Shown here: positions 5,901 through 11,900 of the stretch, piece after piece
How positions within the stretch are numbered: the stretch's first letter is position 1
Layout: every line of letters starts with the position of its first letter
NCBI GenBank assembly: GCA_002633005.1
Contig: NMRA01000138.1
Location: 465,404 to 529,403 of the forward strand
Direction of reading: 5' to 3'
Origin: Phoronis australis
Taxonomy: Eukaryota; Animalia; Phoronida
DNA: 64,000 nt
Made by a program: the position numbers and the translations under genes
The notes under the pieces: model-generated
What the model saw: the letters and a program-made list of their open reading frames with translations, nothing else
Databases searched by the model: none
What the model was told of the DNA's origin: nothing

Positions 5901-8900
5901 TTGTGGTGCATTTGAAGTTGGGGGTACGTTCTTATGTTTCAATTATTTCTCATTTGTTTTATGATGCTCTAGTGTATATACAACTTGAAGTCTACTTAAA
6001 AAAATGCAAAATACTGGTCAAGACTCGCGTGATTTTAGGTGTCTTGTACTTTGAGTGCACTGCATCAGACGTTGTGTAAATTGGTCAGACTGTTAACATT
6101 AAAGTTATTTTTCATCTCTCTGCAGTCGAAAGCCCAACAACCACCTGCAAAGAGAAAAAAGAAAGTTCCGGCTAAGGTAATGTTGATTTTGCGTCTTCTG
6201 TTGGACAGTTAGTTGGCACTCCCATATGTTCACGGTGACTGCTTGGAAATCGGTTGAAAAGTTCCCAACAACTGTTACTTGAGTGTAGGTCTTTCAGTGG
6301 GTTCTTGTGGTTAAAGTTTTAAGTGAACACATGTGAGTTAAATAGCCCATCTTGTCCCAAGACCTGGCGGAGTTTCTTCTCAGCTGTTCGTTAAAAGCCC
6401 AGTCACACTTAACCAAGATTAGCCGGTGGCCACTTTGTGTCCAGTGATAGTGCTGAAAGTTGTGAAATCCATGACACCGGTTAGCTTACAATATGCTCTT
6501 GACTCGCTTATTACACTCTTACTGCGACCCTTTGTCTCCCCAAACTAACCATTTTGCACGCCGAGCTCTCATTGCGCGTGCGTGAGATGAATACATGGAG
6601 ACTCCTGCATGATAACCGGTCACTGTGCTCGAGCCATCCCAAAAATTACCGTGAAATCTTTTGTCCGAACATGACCGCTCAGTCTTATCGTTTGGAGCCT
6701 GTTGGCAACTCCCTTGAGAAAGATCCCCAGATAGGAGTAGTGTAACAAGAAACTGCACTGTAAAGACATTTCAAGGAAGAATAAGCCCGGTTGCTGCTGA
6801 ACTCTTGAGATGGGGGAGACCAGCGAGACCTTACAAGCGTGGTGCAGGTCTCCCAAGAAGAGATGCAGCCACCGACAGAAAAGTCTGGTCAAGCTGACTT
6901 AGTGCGATAAGTTGGTGTTGGCACAGGTTGCTTTTACTGAAGACTCAGATATATGAAGTACAGTGTCGTGTAAGTGAACGACAGAATATCATTTTATGTT
7001 GTCGTAAAACTGTTAAAAAGTGTACAAATGGTATACCGTAAATACTCGCGTATAAGACGGTAGTTTACTCAAAATTAGTTCGGGTCGTCTTATAAGCGAG
7101 TCAAATGAAAATAAACATGGCTTATGGGCACCGGTAACATGGCAGTCAAAACGTTCGGCAAACTATGCACCTGCAATTAATTTGACACCATATGTGGAAC
7201 ATACAAAAATGCCAACAAATCACAAACTTCTGCTGCCAAAGACAAGTGAAACCACTTGAATCACAAGTGTTTGGCTCATTTCCTACCCACCTCTAATAAG
7301 CCGAACAATGCTGAATGCCACGAATTTATGCTAGAGAAGGGGTCCCGCCTTATTAGCAAGATTGTCTTTTTCGCGAGTATTTACATTATATAATAAACTA
7401 TAGAATTTTGGAACTATAAAATGCTTGTACATGACAATATATAATTGTCCTTTACACCATTCACTTACTTGTTCACCTATTGTATTTGTAGATTGAGGCC
7501 AAGAAAGACGAGACTTCTTCTGAAGACACAAAGATTGAAGAAGAAACCAAAAAGGCTGATGATGATCAAGCGGAGAAGCAGCAGCCAACCACTGTGGAGA
7601 CTTGTGATGCACCTGTCCTATTGGATGATACACCTGTCATACTGGAAAATGCAGTGGAGGTGGCTGCAGCTCTCGGGGAAGCAAAGGATAAAGAAGTGGC
7701 TTCTGATGTTGTATGTAATGACAACGGTGATTTGCTTCAGGATGTACAGTCATCCACTGCAGTGACTTCTGAGACAGCCATGAATTTAGATGTTCAAGCT
7801 GAGATGGCAAACAAGGCAGCTTGTGAGGAAGAGTATCGCATGCTTTCCACCATCATGGAAAGGGGACAACAGTCCTTGGAGTTGCAGCAGAAGATGCTGG
7901 AAATGTTGAAGCCACCCGTCCATGTCACCGAGCGAACTACTTATGCAGACTGGACAAAGTCTGTGATGGAGGACCTAGATCCTGCCTTATGGCGCCGCTT
8001 TCAAGTCGACCACTCTCAGCTGCTGTATAGATACATGGGCATGAATGATGACTTCAGGTCGTCCACCACTTCCCAGCGTGCAGGCACAGTGCACCACCAG
8101 CAGGCTCCTACTCGCCAGTTCCATGCTTCATCTCGCCAGTTTCATGCTCCGTCGCGACAGTTTCAGGCATCCTCACAGCAATATCAGACTCTGTCTTCAT
8201 CCCCTGCTATGTGGCAGCCCTCAGCACAGTATTGGACAGGAAATGTACAGCCTGGTTCTTCAGTTTGGGGCTCTCAGTCAGGAGACTGGGTACAGCGCCA
8301 GGTGCAACCCTCAGAGCTAACAACTCTGCAACCCAGGCCTTCAGCGACCACCACTACTATCAGTCCTGTCAGTGATTGTTTTTCAAACTGAGCAGGATTT
8401 CAGAGACTTGAATATCAGTATCTTTGACGGCCCATGTAATGATAGGCTGCTATGTGTACATACTAACAATGATCAACCACCTTCAGATGACAGCTGAAAC
8501 AAGATTATGTATTATGTCAAGATACACTTGGTAGTGTTCCATATATAACTGTTAGAGTTCCAGAGACAGTCTTCAGTGTACTAGTCATGTTTCGTGTTTA
8601 ATAGACTGTGGCTACTGTTCCAGAGGTAAATGCTTGTGTTCAGGGACAGTTATCTGTATGTGCAAGATATTTTTTATTTCAAATATGTCAAGAAACAGTT
8701 GGAATATTAGTGTTTTAGGGACAGTTTGATTACTAGTGTCTTGAACTCAATTTAATTACCGTTGTGTCTGGCAATTTATTGAGAAAATTAGAAATGAAAG
8801 CAACTGTTTGTTATGTCGTACAAACTTGGAATACATGATCCCTATTTTACTTTAATAAAAGTTATATTTGAAATTGTTATCCTTGAATCTGAAAAACAAA

Positions 8901-11900
8901 AAATAAAAGTGCCACAAACCTTAAAAAGCAAACTTGATTTAGGCCGTTCACCATTATAAAGTTGGACTCAACTTGTTACTTTACTTTCCCTGATTAGATG
9001 TCATCTCTAGACTTGCAGTCTAATCATTGAACCCTGAATGAAACTCTAAATTGTTGACAATTTCCGTGCTCCTTGTGATACAACTCTAGATAAATGTCTA
9101 GACTTGTGCCAAAATGGCTAAAGCAATTGAAAACTTAGCCATTTTCAAAAATTGTAAGCCAGATACTTTCTCTATTCCCAACCCCCGCTATTGATAAAAA
9201 CAGTTACGCGGTTCAGAGTATATATTTTTCATGTTATGCACAAGTCCATTTTATACATGGTATAAGAAATGACTGCCTTCAGAAAAAACCAAATGACCAA
9301 CATTCCAAGGTCATATAGCAACATAATAAGTTGGAGGGGATGTCAGCCAACATGAGTTTTATTTGACCTAAAAAGTTTGGACAGGGTTCCCCTATACCTG
9401 AGTTAGTGCATGTGTACACCGGCCACATGGGCATTTAAAGGATGTTGACCTTAGAAATTGAGCAGTTCTCCCCCTATTCCCGGGCTGTGGCGGGGGTAGG
9501 CCGTCCACATGGGCTTTCCATTAATGCCGACCTAAAAAAAGTTGTAGGAGTTCTTGCATTATCAGGGATGGTGTGACTATTAAGTGCGTCCCTTCTCTGC
9601 CTGCCTTTATACTCAATGCCTGACCATAAGACTTTATGTAGAATTCGCTAAAAGATTAGCCAATCACATACCAAGCGATTTGAAGCATGCTAGGCAATTA
9701 GCCAATTTTCAAGTATGGTCTCCAGTTTGGTAACCCTCGTCGGCTGTCTGGTGTAAAATGGCTGTATACTTTTTATTGATTTATATTGTATATCCATTAA
9801 TATCCGTAAGACAATGCTCTGCGTGGACTTATATGATGCTTTGAATTGATCAAAAACATTTGGCAAGGTCTGGTGATAGTTGTGTCACATCAGAGACAAA
9901 ACATACGGTAGCACATACAGGACACCCAGCTTTACAACTAAGAGTTCGAACAGTTAATGTTGTTGACAAAAGTGTGAACAAGCAGTGATTTATAAAAAGT
10001 CACTTTGTTACTGAACTTTCAAAGGGTAGAGAAGTGGACCTGCTAAGTTGGCGTATTGTCACAGTGCTGAACTGTTCTAGCAAGGACAAAAAATACCCAC
10101 GACGATGCACGTGCCGGGCTTACAAGACAAGTTATTGAGTACTTGCTCCTGAAAAGACTGAGGAAAGAGAACTGCTTTGTGCACAGGCTTTGTTATTCCT
10201 TGTCAATAAGATAATACGCACCGCTCTTTAGTCACATTTTTACGGCAAGAGTTGACAGGAAACAACCAACACAGAACGAGCTGTGTACAAACATGGAACA
10301 AGTTCAGCGCCAGTTTCTGAGCTGGAGCAATCTGCACCGGATCATTTCAGTTCCATGTCTTGTTTAAGTGTAAACACAAACTTTGGCAAGGTAGATGCAA
10401 TCGATAACCTCTTCAAATGCAATGTAAATATGTAAAAATGTGCATCTTAACAATTGTAACTCCTGTCATTTGTAACCTTGAACATGCTCTCTCCATCTGT
10501 CTGTCCACACCTTCCGTCTTGTCACTGTTTCTGAGTTGTATGTATAAACTGCTGCTTGACGTTGATCATCTTGCTCAGTGTCACAGTTAATGTGTGAACA
10601 GAGTGCATATCTGACAGCGAAGCATTTTGCATCTGTGCTGTGTAAATGTTGTGTTGTTAATATGTCATTTCATTGGTGTAGGAAAAGCCAGCCAAGAAAG
10701 CAAAAAAGACTCCTGCACCAAAATCTGAAAGTGAAGATGAAGGTGATGATGATGATGAGGAAGTTTCTGATTCTCCATCAGAGGAGAGTGAGGCAAGTGC
10801 TCTCTCTGTTATACAGATAGAAGGAGATGGATAGGCATTGGATTGTGGGAATGGTCCCGTTACTGCAGACTAACCAGTCGTCACGAAGCAAGGACTTCTC
10901 ATAAATCTTTACTTTGGGATGCACCAGTTTTTGTCCACAGTTAAAAAAGTGATGTTTTGTGTTAGTGGTTGACTTTTAGAATAAGCCATGTCCCTAATTC
11001 AAATTACTGGTACTTTCATGGAGGAAAACACCTTTAAGTGATGAATCAAGTTTTTGAAATGTTAAGCCACTGAACTCTTATCAGCTGAGTTGGATAAGCA
11101 AAGAATACTATATTGCTCCACCTAGCATGTCATTTTTGATGCCAGCTTTGCATCCCACTTTGCTACAACCATCCTTTCTTGGCACAGGAGCAGTACTGTT
11201 CAAAGTTGCAGAATTGAGGGTAGTAGTCACATACAGGGGTACTGCCACTGAATAACGGTCATCAAACTGGTTCTCGGAATCAGGATCCCTGGAAGTGACT
11301 ATTGCCAAGTTGTGGATATTGCATGCCGCTGAATCGGAGTGGCACTGCGGTATTTTGGGATGCCCATCCTTGAGGTACAGGAATCCTGTACCTCAAGGAT
11401 GGTACAGCCCTACATCCTGAGGATGTAGGGCTGGCCAGATCTCTTTATCAGTTCTGTGCTTTAACTTGTTGTTACCTGTTGCTGATTAGTGTTTACACCA
11501 GACTGGTTAGTGACATGGCTTTCACTGTGTTTTTAAAGCATGCCTGTTGCTTACGTCGGCATGCATTATCCAAAGACTCAATTTGTTGTGATGAACATCT
11601 GTCTAGCATTTGCCTAACAGTTGCCTGACATTCTTATTCATAGCTTGATGGTCTTAGGTTCCTATGCACTGTGATAGTGCATAAGGAAAATCTATACTTC
11701 TAACTTCACATAATAATTTTAGGAGTCTGAACCAGAGTTTAAACCTAAAAAGAAAAGGAAGACAGCTTCGTCAGATAGTGACAGTGAGGCTGAAAGTGAC
11801 GAGAACGAGGACAGTGAAAAGGTTGAAGAATCTGAAGATGAGGAGGACAGGAAGCCAAAAATGAAACGCAAGACCAAGAAGAAAGTAGTTACAGACAGTG

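Follow-up and report, generated by a model that had tools for sequence, protein, structure and literature searches.

A PWWP-Harbinger fusion isoform of an HDGFRP2/LEDGF-type gene in Phoronis australis and the probable exaptation of a transposon accessory-protein exon

Can a host gene exchange the protein-binding end of a chromatin reader for part of a transposon? This question is raised by a 64,000-nucleotide stretch of the Phoronis australis genome (assembly GCA_002633005.1, contig NMRA01000138.1, positions 465,404 to 529,403 of the forward strand), which in its full length is referred to here as the window. It contains an HDGFRP2/LEDGF-type gene that encodes a PWWP domain, a long acidic and basic region, and an integrase-binding domain (IBD). 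A preliminary description, made from the sequence alone, proposed that a two-exon MADF gene lies on the same strand in intron 5 of this host gene, and that splicing from host position 6176 to the second MADF exon at 7492 yields a 453-aa protein. We find that this chimeric isoform is present in RNA and that its captured exon belongs to the MADF gene family of a Harbinger clade. It is a genuine host-transposon fusion, probably exapted, in which the IBD is swapped for the likely nuclease-binding half of the Harbinger protein.

The predicted junction is found in RNA. We analyzed three raw runs of one study (X2, X3, and X4), with about 18-19% of each run read, and contigs of another study (X1) from a more diverged individual, in which one host exon of 420 nt shows 13 letter differences and a 3-nt gap. 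The junction from 6176 to 7492 (GT..AG) is carried by 9, 7, and 2 reads in X2, X3, and X4, with 5, 6, and 2 starts, and the normal junction from 6176 to 10682 by 21, 11, and 0 reads. The pooled chimeric share is 18 of 50 (36%; 95% confidence interval 23-51%). Besides these two, the only joint listed within 5440-10850 connects host exons 4 and 5. There is hardly any doubt that the chimeric PWWP-Harbinger isoform is real, and its splicing strips the IBD from about a third of the output of the host gene. X4 has a pattern of its own, with a depth of 0.8-6.3 on the captured exon and two junction reads against a depth of 0 in host exons 6-11 (10682-14305). This may reflect a tissue-specific switch or a 3' bias of the library, which are indistinguishable here.

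The splice also keeps the reading frame. Host exons 1-5 sum to 462 nt and end at a GTAATG donor, in phase 0 as had been proposed, and the acceptor at 7492 is preceded by a pyrimidine tract and TAG. Together with the captured exon (7492..8391, plus strand; 299 codons with the stop at 8389-8391), they encode the 453 aa. This is an in-frame splice from a host donor to a transposon acceptor, of the type that forms the last exon of CSB-PGBD3. On the host strand, RNA depth is unbroken across 7492-8878 (1.9-6.9 in the part after the stop codon) and zero across 8879-9059 in X2-X4. AATAAA signals are located at 8854 and 8902; the depth ends just past the former and no onward splice is listed. On the basis of these signals and the RNA depth, the 3' untranslated region (UTR) of the chimeric isoform is placed at 8392..8907 (plus strand).

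The identity of the host gene is evident from both ends of its normal product. Exons 1-3 (2944-3021, 4286-4362, and 4632-4767, plus strand) encode an HDGF/LEDGF-type PWWP domain common to both isoforms, supported by RNA joints, PDB matches, and a Pfam PWWP match on exon 1. The exon pieces match the PWWP domains of HDGF, HRP-2, HRP-3, and PSIP1 in the PDB (E 1e-8 to 1e-3), and the motifs GYPHWPAR and IFFxGTHE agree with solved PWWP structures. Exons 4-5 (5485/5488-5604 and 6126-6176, plus strand) encode a linker that is acidic then basic and end at 6176|GT, the phase-0 donor shared by both isoforms. The tandem acceptor CAGCAG at 5482-5488 is used at both positions, with reads for 5485 and 5488 numbering 8 and 15 in X2 and 5 and 8 in X3. 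Exons 6-17 of the normal isoform (10682..21601, plus strand; RNA joints and Pfam LEDGF) are skipped by the chimeric one; a GC-AG intron at 10793-11722 is backed by RNA joints, and the host gene extends to at least 23053. The IBD (Pfam LEDGF) is encoded by exons within 17602-21051, where PF11467 matches at 19136-19237 (E 2.9e-8) and 20959-21051 (E 7.2e-6) fall in exons joined by RNA. The normal isoform therefore has the HDGF-type N-terminal PWWP domain and the C-terminal IBD that define the HDGF-related/LEDGF/JASPer family. A Gigantopelta HDGFRP2-like protein (P0230), 45% identical to host residues 7-225, is the sole database relative found; the single match of one host exon is a gastropod protein at 68% identity (2 candidates in all). 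By analogy with the LEDGF/JASPer family, the host PWWP domain likely reads H3K36 methylation.

The captured exon belongs to a family that is patchily distributed across phyla. It has eight close homologs and 134 representatives at E<=0.001, with named members in bivalves, a brachiopod, fishes, sea urchins, a crab, amphioxus, and a priapulid, the best named match being from Priapulus. Of the family proteins, 108 were scanned for domains, most of those omitted being short; MADF precedes the matching region in 21, 20 of them above the cut-off, and PWWP and BESS occur in none. In the window, the corresponding first exon is decayed: the last two thirds of MADF are recognizable at 6744..6969 (plus strand), ending at the exon's own donor, by comparison with the nearest relative (P0008) and the family profile. 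This remnant (6744-6972) matches P0008 with E 6.6e-5, and its score against the family profile was reached by 0 of 500 shuffles and is the best of 296 window segments. These matches bear out the two-exon MADF gene on the host strand in intron 5. The stop and several frameshifts previously attributed to its first exon need modification: the stop at 6798-6800 is sure, but there are 2-3 lesions in all, this stop being accompanied either by two frameshifts (~6874 and 6909) or by a second stop and a single frameshift, and the first third, with the start codon and first helix, is unrecognizable. RNA depth on the remnant is 0-1.2 and no joint from 6969 to 7492 is listed.

Linkage to a transposase reveals the type of element. 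Among 11 metagenome loci, two (L001 and L007) show the MADF gene and the final part of a transposase gene tail-to-tail, and in L010 the opposite strand encodes the N-terminal part of a transposase. The transposase piece of L001 retrieves 70 proteins, all of them PF13359 (DDE_Tnp_4) and several named HARBI1- or ALP1-like. No family loci were found in a first metagenome scan (0 of 121 stretches) or a viral scan (0 of 18). MADF together with a DDE_Tnp_4 transposase linked to it in some loci is characteristic of PIF/Harbinger elements with their Myb/SANT/MADF gene, and identifies the family as the MADF gene carried by a Harbinger clade. The family intron falls directly after MADF in the loci, which is the position of 6969|GT and AG|7492 here; the host has thus borrowed the transposon's own phase-0 acceptor. 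Both the junction and the Harbinger/MADF homology, on which the preliminary description had staked its proposal, therefore exist.

Other members of the family provide further observations. In Lingula anatina, a MADF family protein (P0057) and a HARBI1-like transposase (P0166) are both encoded on a 150,228-base contig and probably belong to the same element. RefSeq models of Strongylocentrotus purpuratus LOC105446734 (P0102/P0231, XP_030850776-8) have two zf-UBP domains and the Harbinger core (E 4e-16) with no MADF, a possible independent second capture of the same module by a host gene, judging from its domain layout. A Mya arenaria model flagged as low quality (P0101, WAR19145.1) combines CARD with partial MADF and a partial core, and may be an artefact of gene modelling over a decayed element.

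The remainder of the element is represented by candidate features. PIF/Harbinger elements have terminal inverted repeats (TIRs) and a 3-bp TWA target duplication (PMC13668399). A tentative left end, with TAA followed by a TIR-like start, is located at 6392..6418 (plus strand) on the basis of a by-eye likeness to the start of locus L009. On the right side, a full TIR was not found, and only a 14-nt inverted match was seen at 10358-10371 (26 of 1000 shuffles). A possible, heavily decayed transposase gene at 9319..10636 (minus strand) is on the expected strand and side; it is not established, as the frameshift-aware profile match is weak (5, 2, and 1 of 200 shuffles in three settings, with four tried in all), ranks only second of 140 window segments, and is accompanied by negative hmmsearch, tblastn, and Pfam results. 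Inside the intron of the transposon gene is a small element (7032..7390, no strand assigned) with 27-nt inverted ends that are 85% complementary (15% mismatched). It is likely a miniature inverted-repeat transposable element inserted after the Harbinger element.

The second exon of the transposon gene has a markedly different appearance from the first. Its 299 codons remain open from the phase-0 acceptor at 7492, as originally noted along with the AATAAA signals, whereas the longest stop-free runs in 11 stretches of intron from this gene span 49-95 codons, at most about a third of this length. The encoded sequence comprises an acidic low-complexity part, a three-helix core (residues 107-196), Q/S repeats, and a W-rich motif (239-270). 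AlphaFold2 (AF2), run with 86 sequences, predicts helices at residues 107-139, 147-161, and 164-196 with pLDDT above 90, and disorder in the remaining chain. The exon also contains an in-frame internal duplication of ~150 nt (~7494-7640 versus 7677-7805; 0 of 500 shuffles), which is much diverged and not seen in the eight aligned homologs, suggesting that the captured exon is old. Pfam returned nothing relevant for either the exon or nine X-read frames from the intron. The anticipated homology to MADF-BESS or Harbinger proteins held with respect to the Harbinger-borne MADF family, but not to BESS: there was no PF02944 match for 86 family members at E<=10 among the 25 families listed, and no Pfam BESS match in the 108 family proteins at E<=0.05. 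In the Atlas embedding, the neighbours of the core are BESS clusters, with scores of 0.84-0.88 (under the 0.9 mark) and BESS on 32-37% of members, and are treated as leads only; the AF2 model shows a helical hairpin. Foldseek found nothing at E<=0.001, and the VIA fold search gave a best Z of 6.4 to generic helical hairpins and coiled coils.

Has this exon been maintained? Comparison with P0008 reveals that the core is identical at 55 of 64 positions and the MADF remnant at 35 of 75, the latter flattered by frameshift-aware alignment (Fisher p 1e-6). In 118 of 136 pairs of the intact family, conservation of MADF equals or exceeds that of the core, an order that is reversed in the window copy. 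Relative to 16 outgroups, the window copy retains a median of 1.0 of the identity of P0008 in the core and 0.62 in MADF. Under simulated neutral change, the observed MADF loss requires 0.2-0.25 substitutions per site; at this level, 297 codons stayed open in 2-3 of 3000 runs with indels uncounted, and the core was at 86% identity in no run. In a tree of the core and W-rich motif (18 sequences), the window branch is 0.15 and those of the four nearest relatives are 0.06-0.14. In addition, all three listed coding variants of the captured exon (7987, 8139, and 8295) are synonymous (p ~0.04 if transitions are random), two of them from the more diverged X1, and 13 of the 25 host variants classified among those listed are synonymous. 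The chimeric isoform is, in our judgement, very probably under selection, and the sequence of the captured exon makes purifying selection on the helical core and W-rich motif likely. The uneven decay had already been taken to point to exaptation, a reading that the relative-rate tests and these few variants favour.

Several observations weigh against this interpretation. The simulation takes the present exon as ancestor and uses a single mutation model, and the synonymous bias is based on only three variants. Near 8386 (8382-8390), a frameshift removes ~36 residues of the ancestral tail and qualifies the earlier description of the exon as open: 43 residues follow the SVW/W-rich motif here, compared with 76-102 in 11 homologs. 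The lost tail is now out of frame in the 3' UTR (8381..8499, plus strand), where the shifted frame has 38 open codons. The summed match of this frame to the tails of the 11 homologs, which are not independent, was reached by 2 of 1000 shuffles; this pairwise test was positive, while a profile test was negative as the profile did not extend across 8381-8499. RNA reads contain no indel at the frameshift at a depth of about 6. Since this lesion has been tolerated, constraint on the captured exon is not uniform. No orthologous fusion was found, with PWWP present in 0 of 145 homologs in a local search. All junction reads come from one study (X2-X4), and the X1 contigs are four pieces of exon and UTR, none of which spans the junction. 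Lastly, 3' ends had been expected near 8870-8930, and depth does stop by 8878, but no poly(A) loose end is among the listed reads, an A-rich run lies downstream at ~8892-8908, and one X1 contig reaches 8991. The 3' end of the chimeric isoform is inferred for this reason.

What, then, might the fusion do? A Harbinger DNA transposon left its MADF gene in host intron 5, the rest of the element decayed, and the host splices about a third of its transcripts into the second exon of that gene. The PWWP domain would likely anchor the 453-aa protein on active gene bodies methylated at H3K36, and the captured core would bind the N-terminus of a Harbinger-type nuclease (transposase). With the TIR-binding MADF lost, such a complex would be unable to locate the ends of transposons; it would function either as a decoy that traps mobile transposases or, for a domesticated nuclease, as the subunit that targets it. 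The C-terminal part of the Harbinger Myb protein is described as binding the nuclease N-terminus in zebrafish Harbinger, Ping, HDP2, and ALP2 (PMC7282668, PMC5339849). The captured exon is the C-terminal half of a Harbinger accessory protein and hence leads to the adaptor model with nuclease binding; the partner recruitment suggested in the preliminary description fits for the same reason, as the published binding site maps to this half. In contrast, ALP2 failed to bind the Ping nuclease and the interfaces are lineage-specific (PMC7282668), so the partner of the captured core may be extinct. A complex prediction between exon residues 105-195 and part of a transposase (P0150, residues 25-185), taken from another animal as a stand-in, scored 0.01 and gave no verdict; alignments and controls were not used, and we do not count it as evidence. 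Taken as a whole, we give roughly even chances to the explanation that a Harbinger MADF exon was captured and likely selected for tethering or trapping a Harbinger-type nuclease on PWWP-bound active chromatin, with nuclease binding by the captured half drawn by analogy from other Harbingers. A broader proposal is more tentative and somewhat doubtful: that the host rewired the two-protein machine of Harbinger, using a reader in place of the DNA-binding domain to create a retargeting or decoy subunit on active gene bodies, as a mirror image of HIV integrase using the LEDGF IBD, and that other host domains may also have captured the module, as in the sea-urchin zf-UBP model.

The evidence for selection applies equally if the exon was exapted to bind host proteins, either itself or MADF-BESS-like regulators, as a chromatin adaptor like ALP2 or a BESS-type dimerizer. 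We consider this a lesser possibility, though one with some substance. The BESS domain is described as mediating protein-protein interactions (PMC5982830) and the Atlas leads point to BESS clusters; ALP2 acquired the host partner MSI1 (PMC7282668); and in the sea-urchin model the same core, with no MADF, follows two zf-UBP domains. However, the Pfam searches for BESS described above were negative, and the core is no further from the mobile family than its mobile relatives, which fits a partner shared by the family.

It is unlikely that the isoform is tolerated noise from a neutral or nearly neutral exon trap, in which exon 2 looks young either because a younger copy refreshed it by gene conversion or recombination, or because the element inserted as a derivative with MADF already broken. 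An acceptor and poly(A) signals supplied by the element would account for the splice without selection, and the tail frameshift and lack of an orthologue in homolog searches are in keeping with this. Yet the unevenness of decay is far beyond chance, the in-frame duplication is already much diverged and absent from the aligned homologs, the nested element has 15% mismatched ends, the exon variants are synonymous even in the more diverged X1, and the isoform accounts for 30-39% of transcripts. Still less probable is that the selected trait is simply an IBD-less PWWP isoform that competes with the full protein, with the transposon providing only an acceptor and poly(A) site. Such forms do recur, as in LEDGF/p52 (PMC3355077) and the PWWP-only JASPer paralogues of a stalk-eyed fly (PMC10319772), but an early stop in a last exon would yield the same product, whereas the captured exon keeps a frame of 299 codons, with its core and W-rich motif conserved to the degree seen within the family.

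The window has other features outside the fusion. Head-to-head with the PWWP gene, an exon on the minus strand (147-377) has the look of an HD-domain protein, presumably MESH1/HDDC3-like. Two similar tRNA-like short repeats, resembling short interspersed elements by eye, are located at ~1548-1710 and 1938-2090 around a short spacer. High-copy repeats with pile-ups of reads originating elsewhere are found at 19640-20720, 11245-11275, and 3540-3720.

The BESS-like module would, if that lead holds, be linked to Harbinger elements. The fusion sits in a gene family whose IBD is exploited by lentiviral integrases. With one small construct, it would allow tests both of the binding partner of the unnamed domain at the C-terminus of animal Harbinger MADF proteins and of whether hosts resist or steer two-component transposons through decoy subunits.

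The closest parallel is with CSB-PGBD3, in which a DNA transposon in intron 5 provides an alternative last exon at the 3' end, joined in frame to host exons 1-5, and the fusion is abundant next to the full-length product, with a proposed role in transposon defence or gene regulation (PMC2268245). That fusion captured a whole DNA-binding piggyBac transposase and has been conserved for 43 Myr (PMC2268245), whereas here half of a Harbinger accessory protein was captured and the DNA-binding half was lost. The tetrapod host-transposase fusions likewise arise by alternative splicing into DNA transposons and involve chromatin-related host domains (bioRxiv 10.1101/2020.05.07.082677). They favour a transposon DNA-binding domain joined to a host effector (KRAB), and known host-transposon fusions mostly hand a host effector a new DNA-binding domain; the logic is reversed here, with host targeting joined to transposon protein-binding. 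The words "Harbinger", "PWWP", and "Myb" have 0 occurrences in the main text of that study, and no PWWP-Harbinger fusion turned up in searches of the open-access literature. As in the HARBI1/NAIF1, HDP1/HDP2, ALP1/ALP2, and insect PLG/MADF pairs, a Harbinger Myb/MADF protein has been kept by the host (PMC9710019, PMC7282668, PMC5339849), and ALP2 has similarly lost DNA-binding residues but kept its nuclease-binding C-terminal part (PMC7282668). These pairs are stand-alone genes, for none of which these papers report splicing onto a host reader, and unlike in the co-domesticated pairs, the linked transposase here is dead or gone. LEDGF/p52 and JASPer share the same-family PWWP domain and have IBD-less forms (PMC3355077, PMC6877644, PMC10319772), but here the C-terminus has been replaced by 299 aa from a transposon-derived exon, which include a predicted folded core. 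The birth route is therefore that of CSB-PGBD3 and the tetrapod fusions, and what sets this case apart from them is the capture of a non-transposase half and its joining to a host reader.

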